NCBI GenBank assembly: GCA_018062965.1 | Contig: JAGORG010000004.1 | Location: 15,055-79,054, forward strand | Length of the DNA stretch: 64,000 nucleotides | Direction: 5' to 3' | From: Minisyncoccota bacterium | GTDB taxonomy: Bacteria; Patescibacteriota; Minisyncoccia; Phycocordibacterales; UBA5272 | In this document: one piece after another, positions 7,098 through 60,307 of the stretch | Position numbering within the stretch: position 1 is the stretch's first letter | Layout of the letters: the number at the start of each line of letters is the position of its first letter | Translations under genes and position numbers: made by a program | Notes under the pieces: model-generated | Seen by the model: only the letters and a program-made list of their open reading frames with translations | What the model was told of the DNA's origin: nothing | Databases searched by the model: none

Positions 7098-7170
7098 GCC
7101 AAGATAGCTCAGTCGGTAGAGCACTTCCATGGTAAGGAAGAGGTCGCGGGTTCGATTCCCGCTCTTGGCT
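7098..7170 (+). tRNA. tRNA-Thr (anticodon GGT).
   Basis: Cloverleaf traced by hand: acceptor GCCAAGA/TCTTGGC, D-arm GCTC...GAGC, anticodon stem CTTCC/GGAAG with loop AUGGUAA, T-arm GCGGG-TTCGATT-CCCGC. No CCA is encoded. Confidence 0.9.
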
Positions 7171-7308
7171 CACGAAGTGAGCCAAGGCTGTGAGGGGGGG
7201 TCGGGGAAACGGGAGTTTCCCCGTGGCGGAGGAGTCGGAACCGAGGGGTTCCGAAACCGAAGCGAATGATAGTGAGTGCAGGTTGCTCTTGGCTCATGAA
7301 GGAGTAAA

Positions 7309-7336
7309 GAAAAAGCGCGACCATGGTCGCGCTTTT
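7309..7336. terminator. Bidirectional rho-independent terminator hairpin.
   Basis: Perfect palindrome AAAAAGCGCGACC-ATGG-TCGCGCTTTTT flanked by A/T runs. It sits between the tRNA-Thr region and the convergent 7347..9188 gene. Confidence 0.6.
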
Positions 7337-7346
7337 TAGTTGGCTG

Positions 7347-29688: not shown

Positions 29689-31296
29689 ATGAAAGTCATC
29701 GCACTCGTTGGCCCCTACGGTTCTGGTAAAACGGATCTGGGATCCAATACTATCTCTGCGCTCCTTGCGTCTGGATGGGAAACCAACCAGATTGCCTACG
29801 TTTTAAACGACGAAGGTGATTTGCAGACGTCTATACACGACAAAGCCAAAATCCTTCCGATGGTGAATGGCTGTTTCACCTGTTCTGACAACCAGGATTT
29901 ACAAAACATTCTGGACAAACTCGCACAGGAAAAAACCGTCGACCTCGTTTTTCTCGAGGGTTTCGGTGTTGTGTCAGGATATGAGACCACTCAATTCCTG
30001 GAGAGCACAGGGTATGAGTACGAGGTTATAGCCCTCATTGACCACCTTCATTTCAAACAAAACCAAGTGCGCTACGGCGACGTGATGAAATCCCATATTG
30101 CGGTCGCAACCCTTGGTATCTGTATTACCAAATCAGGAGTTGCCACCCTTGAAGATGTCCACCACGACACACTTGTGTATATTGAAGACAACATGGCTCA
30201 ACGGGTGCGAACCATCCTGCTTGACCGCGGTGCGCCGTTTCCGATTGGGCACTTGGTTGATGTGGTCACAGGCGCCGGCAAAGTTCCAAGTTTTTCGTGC
30301 GGTGGTTGTAAGCATTGCCATACTCATGGGGAGGCACATCATCATCACGAACATGAAGAACATGGTCACGCACATGCCGACCATGGGTACATGTACAAAT
30401 ACACGCCTCTGCCAGGAGTTACGCTAGAAGTACTGAAAGCAGCGTTTATGCCTTACATGGAACGCTTTGGTATAACCCGTATCAAGGGCGCAACCCTTGG
30501 GCGAACATTCCACGGTGTCTACGAAACCTGGCAAAACGGATGCGCAAGTGATCAGCGTTTGGTTATCTTTTACAGCGCAAAGCAAGTTGAGATTGAGCGT
30601 GACATGCCTCGACTGTTTGACTGTATCGAGCACTCAACTCCTTCCTCACAAGAAGCTGGTAAGAAAAGTTATGAGTTGATGCGCACCAAGAACGTTTCCA
30701 CCGAAGCAACCCTCGCTGAAATCACAACACTGCTTGGTCAAATACCGAAAACACCGATGGTGGTGAGAGGTACTGACAAAGTTCGAGTCATCACACACCC
30801 TGAACTACTTCAGGTTGTGAAAGAAATCGTCAGGCGACCCTATCCGGAGCTTGAGAAGAACTTCGCAGAAGTCATAATCGTTTGCATGGGTTACTGGACT
30901 GAGTGCGCTGTTTATATCACCGTAAACGAAATGGCGATCGACCAAAACGAGCTTCCGGTAAACCAGCGCGAGCTTGGCGTGTCACTCGCTTGGTGGACAC
31001 ACCGCTTCGGAAAGATGTTTCCAAAAGAACTCACGGAACGAGTGATCCTTCTCAAACCCGGAGAAATGGTTGCGCGCGGGATTCTGGGCGGACTTCTGAG
31101 TCTCAACAGTGATCCTGAGCGTGCCTACTGGCAGTGTGAGGAATATGCTCGTGCTTTTGAGTTTGGTCTTGACCACTGCGAAGATCGCGAGCTCATGATG
31201 CGCGCTGCGCACCATGCACTATCCCTTGTTCCAAATGATCGCAAAGATCTCAAAGAACAATGGGAAAAGCATGTAGCGAATCTGGAAACCAGGTAA
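29689..31296 (+). CDS. G3E-family P-loop GTPase (CobW/COG0523-like putative metallochaperone) with a His-rich segment and a long C-terminal extension.
   Basis: Walker A GPYGSGKT; a CobW-like NDEGD switch; a metal-binding Cys motif (GCFTC); His-rich HCHTHGEAHHHHEHEEHGHAHADHG. At 535 aa it is longer than typical COG0523 proteins. Confidence 0.7.
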   Translation: MKVIALVGPYGSGKTDLGSNTISALLASGWETNQIAYVLNDEGDLQTSIHDKAKILPMVNGCFTCSDNQDLQNILDKLAQEKTVDLVFLEGFGVVSGYETTQFLESTGYEYEVIALIDHLHFKQNQVRYGDVMKSHIAVATLGICITKSGVATLEDVHHDTLVYIEDNMAQRVRTILLDRGAPFPIGHLVDVVTGAGKVPSFSCGGCKHCHTHGEAHHHHEHEEHGHAHADHGYMYKYTPLPGVTLEVLKAAFMPYMERFGITRIKGATLGRTFHGVYETWQNGCASDQRLVIFYSAKQVEIERDMPRLFDCIEHSTPSSQEAGKKSYELMRTKNVSTEATLAEITTLLGQIPKTPMVVRGTDKVRVITHPELLQVVKEIVRRPYPELEKNFAEVIIVCMGYWTECAVYITVNEMAIDQNELPVNQRELGVSLAWWTHRFGKMFPKELTERVILLKPGEMVARGILGGLLSLNSDPERAYWQCEEYARAFEFGLDHCEDRELMMRAAHHALSLVPNDRKDLKEQWEKHVANLETR

Positions 31297-39295: not shown

Positions 39296-42166
39296 TCAAA
39301 TTACGATATTTATAAGCTTGTTTGGTACGAAGATAACCTTTTTAGGGGTAGTCTGAGCCACATATTTTGTGTACACATCCAGCTTCGCAACCTTAGAAAG
39401 CACTGTGTTTTCATCAGCATCTCGAGCAACGGTAATAGTTCCTCGCAACTTTCCAGAAATCTGAATAGCAAGTGTTACCTCTTTTTCAACAAGTAATGTC
39501 TGATCTGCAACTGGCCAAGAAGATCTGTGAACGGACTCCGCATACCCTCTTTCGTTCCACAGCTCTTCTGCAAGAAATGGAGCAAATGGTGCGAGCAACT
39601 TGATGAACGTATCAAAATCACTAGCACTCACAGTTCCGCGCTTTTCAAACTCGTTAGCGCAAATCATGAGTTGTGAAATACACGTATTAAACGTCATTGC
39701 TTCTACCCCTTCTGTAACCTTACTAATAGTTTGGTGCACTATAGAAAGCGAACCAGTTGTTTCTGTATCAACCTGCTTTGAAAGTTTGTATACTTTATCC
39801 AAAAATCTTTCAACCCCAACTATTGCTTTATCGTCCCATGCAACAGACTGATCAAATGGACCAATGAACATTTCATAAACTCGAAGTACATCCGCACCAG
39901 AAGATGTAATAATCTGATCTGGATTCACAACATTGCCGAGTGACTTACTCATCTTTACCCCACCAGCACCAAGGATCATTCCTTGAGAAGTTCGCTTGTA
40001 GTACGGCTCACTTGTTGGCACTAACCCGATATCAAACAAGAATTTATACCAGAATCGAGAGTACAAAAGGTGTAGCGTTGTATGCTCCATCCCACCGTTG
40101 TACCAATCCACAGGAAGCCATGCCTTAAGAAGTTCTGGGTCCCCAAGAGCTGTCTCATTTTTGGGATCGATATATCGCATAAAGTACCACGAAGATCCCG
40201 CCCACTGCGGCATCGTATCTGTTTCGCGACGAAATACTTCACCTGTTTCGTCTGATACAAAATGTCCTGTTGCGTCGATTTTTCCTTTGATATTGACCCA
40301 CTCAGAAATAGTTGCAAGTGGTGATTCACCGTTATCTGTTGGCTCATATTTATCAACCATTGGAAGCACTATAGGAAGCTCACTTTCTGCAACTGGATAC
40401 ATCGTCCCTTCTTTGTCATACACAACAGGAATAGGTTCTCCCCAATATCGTTGACGAGCAAATACCCAGTCACGAAGCTTGGACTTTATTACAACTCGAC
40501 CATGAAGTGCTTCTGTGATTTTATTACGAGCAACTTGAGAAGTGAGCCCGTTATGCTCACCGGAGTTAATAAGCGCACCATCTTCTGTGATATATACCGA
40601 ATCTGATGCTAATTCTTTCTCCCAAATACCCCATTCACTACAAATAAATTCTGACGGGAATTCATTTTTATGAACCCACATTTTTTCATACCGTGTAGTT
40701 TCTTCTTGAGAAGGCGTCTCTTCAGTAGTCGTGTCACTCATATCTAAAACCACTGCTTTACAATATGAAATTCTATTTTGCTTTTTATGGTTTGCACTAT
40801 ACTCACTTCTAACAACTGAAAGTTCTCTAATAAAAGTAACGTTTGAAATGCCAGCTTCTTCTTTAAGTTCTCTTAATGCAGCATCACGTGCACTTTCACC
40901 ATTTTCTATCCCCCCGCCGACAAAAGTAACCCATGGGAGCTCTTTCCATTTAAGCATTAAATATGTTTGGTCTTTTGGATTACGAAGTATAATCTGCACC
41001 ATTTGCCGCTCTATTGTTGGCCAGTCTTTTACAAACGGATTCTTTAAGTCGTAACGAACAGGTGCAATAACTTGTTTCACTGTAATCCCATATTTTTTTG
41101 CAAACTCTCCATCTCGCTCATCGTGAGCTGGAACAGCCATAATAGCCCCCGCCCCATACTGAGGCAATACATAATCCGCAATAAAGACCGGGACAGACTC
41201 TTTAGTTGCAGGATTGATTGCTGTCACACCTTCTAACTTAACACCAGTTTTTTCTTTACCTTCAGCGGAACGATCTATATCAGGTTTTGAAACTGCTTCG
41301 TCGATATATGACCTAACCTCTTGGCTGTTAGTAACAGCTCCCATATCAAGGAGCTGCTTTACACGTGGATGTTCTGGTGCAAGCACACAATAGGTACAAC
41401 CAAAAATAGTGTCGGCACGGGTAGTGAAGATGGTAAACGGAATACTTGTATCGCCTGCTTGTAATGTAAAATCAATTTCGCTTCCTTCTGAAAGCCCAAT
41501 CCAATTACGCTGCTGAATTTTTATTTTCTCTAGATAGGTTGTCTCATCGAGATCCTTATCAAGCCTCTCAGCGTATTTTGTAATAGCAAGCATCCACTGT
41601 TCTTTATTTCTTTTTTCAACCAAGGTTCCACATCGTTCACATGCACCATCCACTACTTCTTCGTTTGCGAGCACGCATTTATCTTTTGGACACCAGTTTA
41701 CTGGCATTTCTTTTTTGTATGCCAGCCCTTGTTCGTATAGTTTAAGGAAAATCCATTGCGTCCACTTGTAGTACTGCGGGTCTGTTGTTTCAAACCTTCT
41801 CTCCCAATCAAACGAAAACCCACAATTCTTCATCTGACGCTCAAAGTTGTCTATATTCTTACGTGTTGTAATACTTGGGTGAATACCTGTCTTGATCGCA
41901 TAGTTCTCAGCAGGAAGCCCAAATGAGTCATACCCAATAGGAAAGAGAACTTCATACCCCTGGCGACGAGATGCGCGTGCGATAACATCCATAGCAGTGT
42001 AGCTACGAACATGCCCCACATGGAGACCTTCACCTGAAGGATACGGGAATTCAACGAGCAAATATCGCTTCTTTTTGTCGCTATGAATATCTGTTCTATA
42101 GATACCGTCTTCTTCCCATTTTTTAGTCCAATACTCAGCTATCTTGATATGGTCGTATGCGCTCAT
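39296..42166 (-). CDS. leuS: Leucine--tRNA ligase with an embedded NUDIX hydrolase domain.
   Basis: HIGH (HVGH) and KMSKS (KMSKS) motifs. CP1 editing motif TTRADTIFG and AVPAHDERD are present. A ~160-aa insertion (aa ~371-530) carries the Nudix box GGGIENGESARDAALRELKEEAGI. Confidence 0.95.
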   Translation of the reverse strand: MSAYDHIKIAEYWTKKWEEDGIYRTDIHSDKKKRYLLVEFPYPSGEGLHVGHVRSYTAMDVIARASRRQGYEVLFPIGYDSFGLPAENYAIKTGIHPSITTRKNIDNFERQMKNCGFSFDWERRFETTDPQYYKWTQWIFLKLYEQGLAYKKEMPVNWCPKDKCVLANEEVVDGACERCGTLVEKRNKEQWMLAITKYAERLDKDLDETTYLEKIKIQQRNWIGLSEGSEIDFTLQAGDTSIPFTIFTTRADTIFGCTYCVLAPEHPRVKQLLDMGAVTNSQEVRSYIDEAVSKPDIDRSAEGKEKTGVKLEGVTAINPATKESVPVFIADYVLPQYGAGAIMAVPAHDERDGEFAKKYGITVKQVIAPVRYDLKNPFVKDWPTIERQMVQIILRNPKDQTYLMLKWKELPWVTFVGGGIENGESARDAALRELKEEAGISNVTFIRELSVVRSEYSANHKKQNRISYCKAVVLDMSDTTTEETPSQEETTRYEKMWVHKNEFPSEFICSEWGIWEKELASDSVYITEDGALINSGEHNGLTSQVARNKITEALHGRVVIKSKLRDWVFARQRYWGEPIPVVYDKEGTMYPVAESELPIVLPMVDKYEPTDNGESPLATISEWVNIKGKIDATGHFVSDETGEVFRRETDTMPQWAGSSWYFMRYIDPKNETALGDPELLKAWLPVDWYNGGMEHTTLHLLYSRFWYKFLFDIGLVPTSEPYYKRTSQGMILGAGGVKMSKSLGNVVNPDQIITSSGADVLRVYEMFIGPFDQSVAWDDKAIVGVERFLDKVYKLSKQVDTETTGSLSIVHQTISKVTEGVEAMTFNTCISQLMICANEFEKRGTVSASDFDTFIKLLAPFAPFLAEELWNERGYAESVHRSSWPVADQTLLVEKEVTLAIQISGKLRGTITVARDADENTVLSKVAKLDVYTKYVAQTTPKKVIFVPNKLINIVI

Positions 42167-46206: not shown

Positions 46207-46290
46207 GCGTCGGTGGTGGAGTGGTCAATCACAACAGACTGTAAATCTGTCGCCCTTCGGGCTTCGCTGGTTCAAATCCAGCCCGGCGCA
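46207..46290 (+). tRNA. tRNA-Tyr (anticodon GTA).
   Basis: Acceptor GCGTCGG/CCGGCGC; anticodon stem ACAGA/TCTGT with loop CUGUAAA; long variable arm GCCCTTCGGGC; T-arm GCTGG-TTCAAAT-CCAGC. Confidence 0.85.
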
Positions 46291-46297
46291 CTGAATT

Positions 46298-46325
46298 CAA
46301 AAAGCACCTTCAGGTGCTTTTTGTG
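46298..46325. terminator. Bidirectional intrinsic terminator.
   Basis: AAAAAGCACCTT-CAG-GTGCTTTTT hairpin flanked by A and T runs. Confidence 0.6.
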
Positions 46326-46466
46326 TGTCTGGTTGGATTTGAACCGCGGGCCGCAACCCGCGAAGAGCGGGTGTAGGTCTCGAGGCAAGCATGCCGAGAG
46401 GCAAATCCAGCCCGGCGCACCAATATAAGCAACTAAAAACACCCTGTACAGGGTGTTTTTAGTTTA

Positions 46467-55313: not shown

Positions 55314-55421
55314 TATGTATAATATAATATGACATTTGTCGTTAGGACGACATGTCAGTTGTACCTCGTTTTTTTTAATTCAACCCAAGCCCTTCAAGGC
55401 TTTTACTTCTGGAGATATCAC

Positions 55422-56420
55422 ATGGGAAGTGGAAAATCCTTTCGTCGCGAAGACAAGCGCGCCATCCCGCGCGGCCCCGGCCCTCAAGCCAGTCGTGCCG
55501 CAATCCTGTCCCGTCAGTCTGAGACCCGCCACCAACCGGCACCTGCATGGACCTGGATCACAGGTGAAGACGCCTTGGTGAAAGCTTGCCTGGATATGCT
55601 GCATGGCATTCCTGGCATGTACCCGATCTTCGGCATCAAACTGGAAATCCAGGTGCGCCAAAGCAAAACCGAAGACTACCCAGTCCTCGTTTACTACGGC
55701 GCCGAAGCGAGCGACAGGCACGAAGGCCTACACGAGACGGATATGAGGGATGGCTTTGCTATGAGCCCTGACTCCTTGAAGTGGAACGTGACCAAAACCA
55801 CGCGCTTCAAAACTGAGTGGCATGAACTACTCACTCGCACGCTCCTGGGGCAACCTGAGATGCAAATGGCACGCCAAGACTTCTTCGCAGAACAAGAGAA
55901 GCTCGCTAAGCAACAAGATGAACAGGCTCGCGAGGCACAAACCAAGCGAACCAGTCTCGTCGCTCGCCTGCGAAACCAAGTGGCTACGCCCATGACGGAA
56001 CCCGCCGACCTGCCGATCGCCGAAAAAGCGCGCCCGCAAAGGCGCCAGAAACCGGAGTACCCGGAAGTCGACCACATCAGTGAACTGATCGACGGTGACA
56101 TCTGCGTCTTTTACCACTATTCGGGGACAACCCTGAAGACCTGCGAAGGCGACAAGAGGCAACTCGTGGTCCGCATCAGTGGGCTGAAGGACGAAAATCA
56201 CCCGATGTTCCGTGCATCCCAGCTGAACGTGTTCGCCTTCCTCGACGAGGTCGTCGAGGAGCCGGAAAACCCCAAGCTCGAGACCGAAATGCAGCGTGAA
56301 GGTCAAGCATTCCGCGTGTGGCTGCGCGAAGAAGGTATCCTGAACACACCGCAGCAGTCTACTGAGGGTGAACCCTCGGGAAACGTGGTGGGCACCGCGA
56401 CAGAATTGTCGACTTCCTGA
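55422..56420 (+). CDS. Hypothetical protein (GC-rich, foreign codon usage), gene A.
   Basis: GGAGA RBS lies 7 nt before ATG 55422. GC3 is very high relative to neighbours. Basic N-terminus MGSGKSFRREDKRAIPRGPG; no recognisable domain. A terminator hairpin sits at 56479-56527. Confidence 0.6.
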   Translation: MGSGKSFRREDKRAIPRGPGPQASRAAILSRQSETRHQPAPAWTWITGEDALVKACLDMLHGIPGMYPIFGIKLEIQVRQSKTEDYPVLVYYGAEASDRHEGLHETDMRDGFAMSPDSLKWNVTKTTRFKTEWHELLTRTLLGQPEMQMARQDFFAEQEKLAKQQDEQAREAQTKRTSLVARLRNQVATPMTEPADLPIAEKARPQRRQKPEYPEVDHISELIDGDICVFYHYSGTTLKTCEGDKRQLVVRISGLKDENHPMFRASQLNVFAFLDEVVEEPENPKLETEMQREGQAFRVWLREEGILNTPQQSTEGEPSGNVVGTATELSTS

Positions 56421-56535
56421 AGTCGATTTTCCGTATCGGTGCCGCCAAAGGTGCCTAAGCCAACAATGGCTTCATAATAGCGTATCTACCTAGCTTTTTA
56501 GCGACAGTAGATACGCTGTTTTTTATTTTCTATAC

Positions 56536-56563
56536 TTGACAAAATACATATTTCGTGTATAAT
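56536..56563 (+). promoter_or_regulatory. Consensus sigma-70-type promoter driving GC-rich gene B; a paralogue of 55286-55313.
   Basis: ATACTTGACAAAAT(A/G)(C/T)ATATTT(C/T)(G/A)TGTATAATATA is shared between the two cassettes, with about 31 of 36 nt identical. Confidence 0.5.
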
Positions 56564-56637
56564 ATATATTAGCCCTTTGAACGATTCTGTTCATTGGATT
56601 CTTTGAAAACTCCCCTGTTGAATTGAAGGAGAAAGTA

Positions 56638-57666
56638 ATGGCAAAGACCAAAACAACCCAGCAAAAGAAATCCCCACATGGGAAAGTAAACCCCGTGAAC
56701 ATGGGAACTCCGGGCGCAAACATCGCCCGAAGCGAAGCTGGTCGTTTGCACAAGAAGCAGGTGCAAAAAGTGCGCCATAATAGCGCTGTCGCACAACGTG
56801 AAGCAGCGCAGCATGTCGAGCATCGCAAGCTGACTATCCAGTTCGACTCTCTGTCCCGAAACTACGAAGCAATGCTTCGTGGCACACAGGGCAAATCCTT
56901 CGGACTGAGACTGAACAAGTCATTCGAAAACTATTCTGCTTTTGGCATAATCAGAATGGAAATCCGTATCTGCGGCAAACACAACTTGCCGTCGATCATG
57001 GTGACTGGTTCAACCTTCGACCCCATCCCGGAGAGCGAAGGGAACTTCTTGCCATTGGTTACGCTGGCGCACAAGACCCTGAAAGACGTTGGTCAACCGA
57101 AGCACGTCCTCGACTGGCAGGTGGAACTCCATTCGACGCTCCGCCATTTCCTGAAAGACGAACTCGGAGCAAACCCTCCCTTCAGCTCCAAACTGACACC
57201 GCCTGTTCACATCGTTGCTCCGCAGCTTCAACTCCGACCGCAACGCACCGCAGATCACGAGTCTGCAACTGCACAAGCAAATAAAAGCGAAGAAGGGGTG
57301 GATGTCACCGGCCACAAGCCGCTGACAGGCACCCAATTCTTCGCAAAGGATACATCTGGCATCTACACCCACGAAAAAAATGGGTGTCTCGCCTACTTCC
57401 GGTTGGAGCGTATCGCCGGCGTGCAATCGTTCAAACTGGTTGCAGTGGACGAAGGCCATCCGCTCATGCACTGCCTGGAGCACCACGACACCGTCCATGT
57501 GCACCTGCAGGACCTACCGGCGAACAACCGCCCATATGGTGCACTGCAGGAAATGCGCAACGCGCGCGAGTGTGTACGCCAGTACCTGCGCCAGGTCGGC
57601 ATGAGTTTCGGCATCAAACCGAAAATGAAACATGGCTCCCCTGAACAGCAGCAATCAGTGGCCTGA
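56638..57666 (+). CDS. Hypothetical protein (GC-rich, foreign codon usage), gene B.
   Basis: GAAGGAGA RBS lies 5 nt before the ATG. Basic N-terminus MAKTKTTQQKKSPHGK...; no recognisable domain. An intrinsic terminator sits at about 57692-57728. Confidence 0.6.
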   Translation: MAKTKTTQQKKSPHGKVNPVNMGTPGANIARSEAGRLHKKQVQKVRHNSAVAQREAAQHVEHRKLTIQFDSLSRNYEAMLRGTQGKSFGLRLNKSFENYSAFGIIRMEIRICGKHNLPSIMVTGSTFDPIPESEGNFLPLVTLAHKTLKDVGQPKHVLDWQVELHSTLRHFLKDELGANPPFSSKLTPPVHIVAPQLQLRPQRTADHESATAQANKSEEGVDVTGHKPLTGTQFFAKDTSGIYTHEKNGCLAYFRLERIAGVQSFKLVAVDEGHPLMHCLEHHDTVHVHLQDLPANNRPYGALQEMRNARECVRQYLRQVGMSFGIKPKMKHGSPEQQQSVA

Positions 57667-58622: not shown

Positions 58623-58707
58623 TGCCCAGGGCGGGACTCGAACCCGCACGCCATTAGATGACAGAAAATTTTAAGTCTTCCGCGGCTACCATTACGCCAC
58701 CCGGGCA
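58623..58707 (-). tRNA. tRNA-Leu (anticodon TAA).
   Basis: Reverse complement gives acceptor GCCCGGG/CCTGGGC, an anticodon loop CUUAAAA and a long variable arm with T-arm GCGGGTTCGAGTCCCGC. Confidence 0.8.
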
Positions 58708-59189
58708 TTATTGTTATTTACCTTTTTATTTCTACCTCTGTGCGTTGACTGCATACTGTGACAGTTAGGACAAAGAATCCTTAGATTTTCTATCCTGTTG
58801 TCTCTATGTTTTCCATTAATATGGTCAAGCTCAACAGGGATTCTACCATCTTCTGTGACTCTCGCCCAGCCACACATTTCACATTTAGGTTTCTTGATAC
58901 CTTCTTTAAAGAGTCTTTGTTTCAATTTAAAACTCTGGAAGTCGCTATTTTCAACTAAAATATCTTTTGTTGCTATAAGTACTTTTCTCGGAATAACTTT
59001 GCCCTTGTTGGATCCTTTACCTAAAAAGTGTTTTATATCAAGATCGTGAATACGAATATATTTCTTAATTTGCTCGTAGTTTCCGCCAGCTTGAACTAAG
59101 TTAAGTTTCTTTAAAACTTGGCGTATACTCGTAGAATTTTTTATAGCCACCTTCAAGCCAGGCAAATCCCACTTTTTTGTTCTTACCAT
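58692..59189 (-). CDS. HNH endonuclease.
   Basis: The HNH core ELDHINGKHRDNRIENLRILCPNCH plus a zinc-finger CEMCGW. Its 3' end overlaps tRNA-Leu(TAA) by about 16 nt. Confidence 0.7.
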   Translation of the reverse strand: MVRTKKWDLPGLKVAIKNSTSIRQVLKKLNLVQAGGNYEQIKKYIRIHDLDIKHFLGKGSNKGKVIPRKVLIATKDILVENSDFQSFKLKQRLFKEGIKKPKCEMCGWARVTEDGRIPVELDHINGKHRDNRIENLRILCPNCHSMQSTHRGRNKKVNNNNARVA

Positions 59190-59229
59190 AATGGTATAGT
59201 AACACAAATAACTATTCTTCTATGTGTAC

Positions 59230-59820: not shown

Positions 59821-60004
59821 ATAATGAAGTATACAGTACTTTGGAGACGCAGGCGGGAGGTTCGGTCACAAAACTACCTCGCTTCGCTCGAAGCAGTTTC
59901 GCTTGTTCCAAGAACCGAACTTGCTAGTTCGCCTATTCAAGTCCTTACGCAAACAAAGCAGTTGGCTTTTTCCTGCGTCTCAAAAACGCTTCGCTTATTT
60001 TGGG

Positions 60005-60078
60005 AGACGCAGGCGGGAGTCGAACCCGCGAATGGCGGTTTTGCAAACCGCAGCGTTAGGCCACTTCGCCACTGCGTC
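60005..60078 (-). tRNA. tRNA-Cys (anticodon GCA).
   Basis: Reverse complement gives acceptor GACGCAG/CTGCGTC, anticodon stem GCGGT/ACCGC with loop UUGCAAA, and T-arm GCGGGTTCGACTCCCGC. Confidence 0.8.
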
Positions 60079-60248: not shown

Positions 60249-60307
60249 CAAATAAAAAAGCGCGCCGTAGGCGCGCTTTTGTGTTTATTGTTCACCAGTA
60301 AACTTTT

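Follow-up and report, generated by a model that had tools for sequence, protein, structure and literature searches.

Directly behind the tRNA-Cys gene in a stretch of 64,000 nucleotides from a Minisyncoccota bacterium (GenBank assembly GCA_018062965.1, contig JAGORG010000004.1, positions 15,055 to 79,054; the whole stretch is referred to here as the window) lies an element of about 160 nt, whose closing sense arm, S2, is a repeat of the 3′ end of the tRNA and whose antisense arm is an inverted 10-mer. It is an old, remodelled and chimeric member of a large family of modular folded elements, 100–160 bases long, that are situated directly behind, and co-oriented with, the tRNA genes of most specificities in Patescibacteria (Candidate Phyla Radiation, CPR). 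It is firm that the Cys repeat is within an insertion, that the tRNA-linked family is large, that its conserved fold is specific to the sense strand, and that the arms fit the local tRNA.

The tRNA-Cys(GCA) gene is at 60005–60078 on the minus strand (ARAGORN; Rfam tRNA 60.1 bits), and its positions 56–73, termed S1 in what follows, are at 60005–60022. The initial annotation had reported that the 3′ segment of this gene recurs downstream, and the repeat is genuine: CTCCCGCCTGCGTCTCC on the minus strand is present exactly twice in the 64 kb, at 60003–60019 and at 59843–59859, with 0 occurrences expected from 100 shuffles, and when extended to 20 nt the two copies, spaced by 160 nt, are 95% identical. 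That annotation also placed a further direct copy, of 10 nt, in between at 59976–59985. A middle segment of 10 nt is indeed present, but its true site is 59972–59981 and the direct status does not hold: as CCTGCGTCTC is there on the plus strand, the tRNA strand has GAGACGCAGG, and the segment is an inverted copy of the tRNA-Cys 3′ end (its reverse complement) and no third direct copy. This inverted orientation, overlooked earlier, is the key to the architecture of the element. Two independent Logan assemblies give the very same sequence for the locus, so an assembly artefact is excluded. The insert comprises 143 nt and has no open reading frame (ORF).

Was the segment between the repeats really inserted, as the initial annotation supposed? 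A scan of the GTDB species genomes for the tRNA-Cys 3′ end revealed an identical tRNA in metagenome-assembled genomes (MAGs) labelled Saccharibacteria, Nomurabacteria and unclassified bacteria, the taxon labels being those of the deposited MAGs. In one locus, L019, the DUF2238 gene known from the window comes immediately after tRNA-Cys, with nothing inserted, and this empty orthologous site, set against the filled sites of the window and of L026, bears the supposition out. Inserts, each with a direct repeat of its own, occur in L026, L022 and L025. In L012 tRNA-Cys is empty and the next tRNA, Leu(UAA), has an insert ending in a copy of the Leu 3′ end; as the 3′ half of that insert is homologous to the window Cys insert, the cargo is common and the arms are tRNA-specific. 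At filled sites it is the distal copy that retains the original flank. Besides L012 and L019, L003 has an empty Cys site, and most Lys(CUU) sites have no element. At the orthologous Cys–DUF2238 locus, elements are alignable across six genomes in which the flanking protein is only 70–76% identical, and their adaptors have changed along with tRNA-Cys itself, both in L064, with differences in T-loop, T-stem and acceptor, and in L092, with a different acceptor.

The tRNA-Thr and tRNA-Tyr genes of the window had been said to have the same pattern, and they do: the repeats are at 7161/7285 (12/17 nt, spacing 124) and at 46273/46402 (19 nt, spacing 129), and each locus has an inverted copy of the tRNA end right behind the tRNA. 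On the tRNA strand the order at all three loci is tRNA, hairpin or terminator, inverted copy of the 3′ end, GC-rich structured segment and direct copy, with a terminator past the direct copy at Thr and Tyr. The inverted and direct copies pair as a closing stem, with fold z-scores of −3.8 to −4.9. Comparison of the three inserts gave no sequence homology among them, and they are three different cargo types on one plan. Type B, that of Thr, has a homologue behind tRNA-Trp in L091, and type C, that of Tyr, has homologues behind tRNA-Leu(UAA) in L022 and behind tRNA-Tyr in L066; both types are known from few copies only. The two Leu tRNAs and the Lys tRNA of the window lack the repeat pattern.

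How widespread are such elements? Metagenomes were scanned by the constant core alone, GAATAGGGGTCGC-N(20-50)-GTGACCGA, which gave 68 loci, about 5 of them chance matches in GC-rich coding DNA, and in these metagenome loci the core lies 63–95 nt behind tRNAs of about 21 anticodon types. A covariance model built from 57 copies, whose E-values are rough, found 108 copies in 409 kb of metagenome loci and more in genome loci; at the window Cys locus, model R1 matches 59908–59972 with 22 bits (E = 0.002). For 75 copies there is a tRNA no more than 300 nt away, and in every case it is upstream and shares their strand; copies with no tRNA are preceded by degenerate tRNA 3′ fragments. Among the collected loci a type A element is behind 63 of 109 non-redundant tRNAs, of 15 amino-acid classes, in a sample that is biased as each locus was picked for holding a copy. 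The same kind of element is present behind many tRNAs in related genomes, and a systematic tRNA-linked process, as surmised in the initial annotation, does exist.

In type A, the tRNA is followed by a hairpin (hp1), an antisense arm (S′a) complementary to tRNA positions 65–73 and the CA that follows them, a second hairpin (hp2), another antisense arm (S′t) complementary to positions 56–64, an AAUAGG bulge, a hairpin termed P4, and S2. hp1 is either a mini-hairpin with a GAA triloop or a full terminator, and its stem is lengthened by the pairing of the tRNA acceptor 3′ strand, N73 and CA with S′a to give near-perfect palindromes with arms of up to about 30 bp. hp2 is a 25-nt module with a 9-bp stem and a conserved CUGC loop, with linkers on either side, and P4 is a long hairpin with GGUCGCG/UGUGACC at its base and two invariant G·U pairs. 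Every copy has an antisense copy of its tRNA end, in arms of 9 + 11 nt. Over 50 copies S′t ends at position 64 in 27 and S′a starts at position 65 in 23; with respect to the tRNA the two are exactly contiguous in 19 of the 27 evaluable copies, and the interval between them is 25 nt in 20. S2 begins at C56 and has two forms, the T part only (8–13 nt) or the full 3′ end (15–23 nt). The right junction is variable: the part derived from the tRNA follows GUGACCGA either directly or after 2 filler nt. In L003 (3940–3990), L022 (3900–3950) and L038 (about 760–800), S2 is itself split by a small extra hairpin at the T-stem/acceptor boundary, 65|66, nearly the point (64|65) at which hp2 splits the antisense copy, and hairpin insertion there seems recurrent. 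Terminator-less hp1 is weakly associated with a full-length sense arm (5/5 versus 19/47 with a split at ≤30 nt, Fisher p = 0.016, this split cutting through a run of similar short hp1); a recount by hand with a ≤34-nt threshold gave 9/13 versus 15/39, judged non-significant without a computed p.

Measured by this plan, the hp1 of the window Cys element is kept in the orthologous Cys elements of five other genomes, and its closest cargo relative is behind tRNA-Thr(GGU) in L082, with 92.5% identity over 80 nt. The segment in the S′t position fits tRNA-Leu(UAG), while S′a and S2 are Cys-specific, and on that account the element is chimeric.

What follows N73 deserves a word. S′a is the complement of the gene flank, N73-CA, and not of the mature end, N73-CCA. 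In the CPR loci L003–L103 and the window, most tRNA genes have N73-CA-N next, CCA being encoded in 13 of 120, and the CA belongs to the palindrome with the antisense arm. Over all loci, CCA is behind 9 of 34 distal copies and 1 of 32 corresponding genes; in the window, the distal copies behind Cys (59842–59844) and Tyr (46420–46422) encode CCA where the tRNA genes have CCC and CTG. As proof of retro-copied mature tRNA this does not suffice, for only those 9 of 34 have CCA and some Cys genes encode CCA themselves. A retroelement primer-binding site for mature tRNA was set aside, given the fit of the antisense arm to the N73-CA flank.

The fold is conserved and specific to the strand that has the tRNA sense sequence, and it has the covariation on one strand that a structured non-coding RNA would have. 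RNAalifold predicts hp2, a stem P3 of S′t with S2, and P4, with compensatory changes in 19 of 27 pairs. With the structure fixed, 96.3% of cells are paired, as against 75.8% when shuffled and 35–43% with slid partners, and there are 348 double changes where shuffles have 111. In 59 of 59 copies the better fold is that of the sense strand, on which G·U pairs outnumber A·C mismatches, about 100 of those G·U being the two invariant pairs; no strand bias was found for the hp1 palindrome. Co-orientation with the tRNA is strict, and at several elements terminators follow the sense arm. When the full tRNA plus element was folded for Cys, Thr, Tyr and L052, the minimum free energy (MFE) structure had the tRNA 5′ acceptor strand with S2, and S1 locked by the antisense arms, in 4 of 4. 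The prediction is that the antisense arms may choose between two partners.

The terminators behind tRNA genes here, whether or not an element is present, are unusually long perfect palindromes, each arm of 18–22 bp being composed of A-tract, GC stem and T-tract; examples are at 60250–60286 of the window, behind Lys in L019 and in the trailer of the window Leu(UAA). As such ordinary terminators are equally perfect palindromes, the perfection of hp1 is no proof of recent snap-back synthesis.

In L068, behind tRNA-Val, and L093, behind tRNA-Lys, hp2, bulge and P4 are 100% identical over 72 nt and the adaptors are different. One tRNA may be followed by a tandem array of like and unlike cargo types, and there are chimeras, as well as orphans with degenerate tRNA 3′ fragments. 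The elements at about 540–640 in L070 and about 1748–1850 in L080 have an identical left half, with arms of Leu(CAA) type, and different sense arms (Leu versus Trp), so that at least one of them is a recombinant, with exchange within the conserved core.

Table 1. Parts of the elements behind tRNA-Cys, tRNA-Thr(GGU) and tRNA-Tyr, in coordinates of the window.
Feature	Description	Coordinates	Strand	Basis
Cys: direct repeat copy 1	CTCCCGCCTGCGTCTCC; T-stem 3′ strand, acceptor 3′ strand, discriminator, CC	60003..60019	-	
Cys: hp1	A-arm / GCGAAGC mini-hairpin / U-arm (CCCAAAAUAAGCGAAGCGUUUUU); joins tRNA end to antisense arm	59982..60004	-	
Cys: S′a antisense arm	GAGACGCAGG; complements acceptor 3′ strand, discriminator and next base	59972..59981	-	
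Cys: hp2 module	Degenerate; ACUGCU loop retained, 5′ arm broken	59947..59971	-	Model R1 match and alignment
Cys: S′t position and bulge	AAGGACUUG and conserved AAUAGG bulge; antisense part fits tRNA-Leu(UAG) T-arm, not tRNA-Cys	59932..59946	-	
Cys: extra hairpin	CGAACUAGCAAGUUCG and linker; typical of subfamily A2	59902..59931	-	
Cys: P4 and core	Hairpin (CGAAACUGCUUCGAGCGAAGCGAGGUAGUUUUG) and conserved GUGACCGA core with 2-nt filler	59860..59901	-	
Cys: S2 sense arm	Direct repeat copy 2; reads ...GUCUCCA	59842..59859	-	
Thr(GGU) element	Cargo type B	7161..7337	+	
Thr: S1a		7161..7172		
Thr: antisense arm	GAA-triloop hairpin leads up to it	7178..7187		
Thr: cargo		7188..7284		
Thr: sense arm		7285..7296		
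Thr: terminator		7310..7337		
Tyr element	Cargo type C	46273..46460	+	
Tyr: S1		46273..46291		
Tyr: terminator		46299..46322		
Tyr: antisense copy	Contiguous	46323..46345		
Tyr: cargo		46346..46401		
Tyr: sense arm and CCA		46402..46422		
Tyr: second terminator		46435..46460		

What are these elements? On balance they are probably non-autonomous insertion elements, dependent on RNA structure, that copy their adaptors from the resident tRNA, and this reading is favoured by the empty sites, the several cargo types, the arrays, the chimeras and the orphans. Also counted in its favour are cargo common to different tRNAs, the scale of the family, its uniform orientation, the adaptor geometry, the covariation, the strand-specific fold and the adaptors that follow substitutions in tRNA-Cys. 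Identical cargo with different arms implies that the arms are rewritten quickly, for which copying from the resident tRNA gene is the most economical route. Elements would be gained and lost at tRNA 3′ ends, and their short adaptors would be re-templated from the resident gene. The route would be copying across the flanking hairpins, whether by fold-back or by template switching, and/or conversion of short tracts between S1 and S2, the two sense copies. A read-through transcript from the tRNA would have to fold, and so the modules would stay covarying. We infer here that the elements are transcribed, that they move and are not only inherited, that templating takes some such route, and that an enzyme acts in trans.

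Several observations weigh against such insertion elements. hp1 often resembles an efficient terminator ahead of the element, and transcription of the element is therefore not assured. The 50 largest ORFs of the window are, by Pfam scans, ordinary housekeeping genes of CPR, and none of them is an integrase, a transposase or a reverse transcriptase; neither an autonomous long version nor a viral copy was found. The conservation of the Cys element across genomes with so diverged a flanking protein suits a vertically inherited functional RNA as well as it does a mobile element. About half of the copies hold only the T part of S2, for which simple target-site duplication does not account. The templating step is a hypothesis, and the loci having been gathered with a pattern derived from the family, the occupancy figures are biased.

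Could it be, then, that the elements are host RNAs? The main rival, possible and yet on the unlikely side, is a cis-acting RNA within tRNA transcription units, inherited vertically with negligible mobility and matched to its tRNA by selection. In one form, arms pairing with either the tRNA 3′ half or S2 would constitute a bistable switch or timer acting on the folding and processing of the tRNA; in another, the element would be a bipartite guide, omega-shaped and of H/ACA-like topology, serving a factor whose target is the 3′ half of the tRNA. The strong covariation and the invariant loop, bulge and G·U positions argue for a host RNA, as do the strict co-orientation, the adaptors that co-vary with the tRNA at orthologous loci where the element is kept beside so diverged a gene, and the precision of arm lengths and split (9 + 11 nt, 64|65) over unrelated tRNAs. 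The greater frequency of encoded CCA on the distal copy than on the gene, and the predicted shift of the tRNA 5′ strand to S2 with S1 sequestered, also favour it. However, presence varies at the same tRNA, as with the empty Cys sites and the mostly empty Lys(CUU), at least three unrelated cargo types together with the arrays, chimeras and orphans resemble turnover of elements, and slow co-evolution alone would not give identical cargo with different adaptors. The strong terminator that hp1 often forms ahead of the element is a difficulty for a host RNA also. To our knowledge no RNA-guided modification system exists in bacteria and we know of no partner protein, both of which count against a host RNA. 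Insertion elements and host RNAs are not mutually exclusive views.

More tentatively still, and with rather little confidence, the elements may be considered a programmable RNA system: a constant scaffold (hp2, AAUAGG, P4) would present a guide of 9 + 11 nt to the last 20 nt of one tRNA or its gene, closed by a target mimic in cis, and would either direct a factor to tRNA 3′ halves or their genes, or copy itself to new tRNAs by tRNA-templated synthesis, whether fold-back or reverse-transcribed.

Is the well-known use of tRNA genes by integrases relevant? The initial annotation had offered small integrative elements as one explanation and decay products of larger islands as the other. In the form of satellites or remnants of integrase elements, the first would have circles with an attachment site, attP, extending from the T-loop to the tRNA 3′ end, served by a tyrosine integrase in trans in the manner of cis-mobilisable elements (CIMEs); attL would then lie within the tRNA, and the distal copy would mark attR. 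A direct repeat from T-loop to 3′ end with a restored tRNA is its classic signature, and repeats of 17–23 nt that start at about C56, comprise the tRNA 3′ segment and flank the insert are what is found; empty and filled sites, tandem accretion and the original flank of the distal copy are all in keeping. Junctions and core site, though, do not fit: the right junction has its 0 or 2 filler nt, at odds with conservative recombination, and GUGAC or GAGAGG to the left of the distal copy is not like a T-stem core site. The window has no integrase or other recombinase, IMG/VR scans for a viral origin gave only chance matches in coding DNA with no tRNA nearby, and no autonomous relative with the same attP turned up there or among the distant repeats of the loci, in none of which does a distant second copy of the repeat flank a large insert. 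Half of the copies have the T part only, attachment sites do not explain the bipartite antisense copy or the covarying hairpins, and a single integrase would need more than 20 different att identities. Integrase satellites are accordingly quite improbable, and the integrative elements originally proposed are not supported in the usual, integrase-borne sense. Nor are decay products of larger islands, as the inserts are families of conserved, covarying modules with no distant repeat copy to be found.

It is still less probable that the elements are neutral by-products of template switching, in which palindromic terminators provoke fold-back and direct-inverted-direct triplications with neither function nor mobility. 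A tandem inversion duplication would likewise have the order S, S′, S and a hairpin at each turn-around, native terminators are perfect palindromes with arms of 18–22 bp, hp1 with the acceptor arm reaches near-perfect palindromes of up to about 30 bp with no strand asymmetry, and the fit of the antisense arm to the gene flank and not the mature CCA end would also follow. Such by-products, however, give no account of cargo modules common to different tRNAs and genomes, nor of the covariation of those modules, the fixed 25-nt module at 64|65 or the conservation at orthologous loci, and family-level conservation already largely refutes them.

Hardly credible is a split tRNA, in which read-through transcripts would take their true 3′ half from S2 and everything from S1 to GUGAC would behave like a giant insertion or intron between 55 and 56, removed or tolerated. 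In its favour, the four full-transcript MFE folds pair the tRNA 5′ strand with the distal copy, several distal copies encode CCA and the duplication begins at C56. Against it, the upstream tRNA is complete with a normal score, the distal copy has no acceptor part in about half of the elements, there is neither a splicing motif nor an Rfam intron match, and no case was found of a broken S1 with an intact distal copy behind the tRNA 5′ part.

Known identities were also considered. Only the six tRNAs of the window reach the Rfam gathering threshold, and at E ≤ 10 Rfam gave only terminator-like or miRNA-like noise for the Cys, Thr and Tyr elements and the canonical element. A miniature inverted-repeat transposable element (MITE) does not match, the inverted arms being specific to the tRNA and not to the element and the duplicated segment being 9 or about 20 nt from a fixed tRNA position. 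A decayed tandem tRNA duplicate is excluded because the interior is cargo common to different tRNAs; the antisense arm, besides, pairs past the acceptor stem, to N73 and CA. For an H/ACA or C/D guide RNA, inspection of alignment A3 showed no boxes, Rfam no snoRNA-like match and the window no Nop- or Cbf5-like gene. Inspection gave no convincing fit to the hammerhead or other small ribozymes, nor, in the bulge, to K-turn, loop E or T-loop motifs. TIGR arrays do not match in unit sizes or in repeats. Group I introns of Patescibacteria tRNAs have another site (35/36) and another size; a paper on these introns places them in the anticodon loop, mentions no downstream repeats and reports group II introns to be absent from the phylum.

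Some neighbouring features of the window may be recorded. Between the DUF2238 gene and tRNA-Leu(UAA) is an ORF for an HNH endonuclease (58692–59207, minus strand; weak match to Pfam HNH_3), the last 15 nt of which overlap the 5′ end of tRNA-Leu(UAA); a 67%-identical copy is in the same place in L092 and it is absent from L026 and L064. This free-standing ORF, situated in a tRNA cluster, resembles a mobile endonuclease of the homing type. A link between it and the elements was rejected, as the HNH gene is at this one locus only, in two genomes. The leucyl-tRNA synthetase gene (39296–42166, minus strand) encodes a NUDIX domain (residues 390–503) inserted after the editing domain. At 55329–57666 on the plus strand, two adjacent ORFs of 363 and 347 aa have no Pfam match, no detectable relation to each other and a GC content of 51% versus about 43%. 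An imperfect direct repeat of 25 nt, at 30092–30116 and 30476–30500 (384 nt apart) in a CobW-like gene (29689–31296), is probably an internal protein repeat.

What does it mean that in loci chosen with bias more than half of the tRNA genes of ultra-small CPR genomes have a conserved folded appendage fitting their own 3′ end? Should this hold genome-wide, the expression or processing of CPR tRNAs, or the plasticity of CPR genomes, would involve a component not found in Rfam or in the literature searched, in which no description of these tRNA-trailing elements was found. A constant scaffold with rewritten arms of 9 + 11 nt is a hallmark of programmable RNA systems, and raises the issues of what rewrites the arms and what reads them; if such a system were at work here, it would be a guide-RNA-like or target-templated mobile system with no precedent in bacteria. 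On a practical level, the repeats of these elements at tRNA genes can pass for the att sites of prophages or islands, the elements act as recombination substrates, and the covariance model is usable for annotating CPR genomes.

The comparison with known systems is instructive for what is shared as well as for what is not. With the tRNA sites of tyrosine integrases (prophages, integrative and conjugative elements, the T-loop class and integrase-less CIMEs) the CPR elements share the repeat from T-loop to 3′ end, the intact tRNA, the distal copy with the original flank, empty and filled alleles, and tandem accretion. In contrast, the CPR insert is only 100–160 bp and has no gene, integrase, arm sites or viral match, and its cargo, with filler nt, bipartite antisense copy and covarying hairpins, serves more than 20 tRNA identities. 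REP/BIME/REPIN, Rickettsia RPE, Neisseria Correia and pneumococcal BOX elements are also about 100–150 bp, in many copies per small genome, with modular hairpins, non-coding, at the 3′ ends of transcription units and subject to recombination that yields chimeras; unlike them, the CPR elements have neither terminal inverted repeats of fixed sequence nor a short fixed target duplication, are behind tRNA genes only and strictly on one strand, and have arms rewritten to fit the tRNA.

A structured RNA directly downstream of a co-oriented tRNA is known from E. coli 3′ETS-leuZ, the plant tRNA-snoRNA cleaved by RNase Z, the tRNA-miRNA of murine gammaherpesvirus 68 (MHV68) and the mascRNA of MALAT1, and by analogy release by tRNA-processing enzymes is plausible for the CPR elements, though those RNAs have no antisense and sense copies of a tRNA 3′ end and are no multi-copy family on most tRNAs. 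The H/ACA pocket, the box C/D of the archaeal pre-tRNA-Trp intron, IS110 bridge RNA and the tigRNA of TIGR systems resemble the CPR elements in having a constant scaffold with programmable segments around a hairpin, an omega-shaped three-way junction with the target strand, and a guide encoded beside its target. Differences are that the CPR elements have no recognisable H/ACA, C/D or K-turn boxes, that all target nt are paired, that there is a target mimic in cis, and that no gene for Nop, Cbf5 or a recombinase was found in association with them; TIGR units, at 36 nt with 9-nt spacers, are themselves dissimilar. Finally, tandem inversion duplications that arise by snap-back at quasi-palindromes, such as those of Salmonella and the eukaryotic DUP-TRP/INV-DUP, have the same direct-inverted-direct order with hairpins at both junctions and a perfect palindrome at the first, whereas the CPR counterpart is on a scale of about 20 nt, recurs at many tRNAs and encloses conserved foreign modules.

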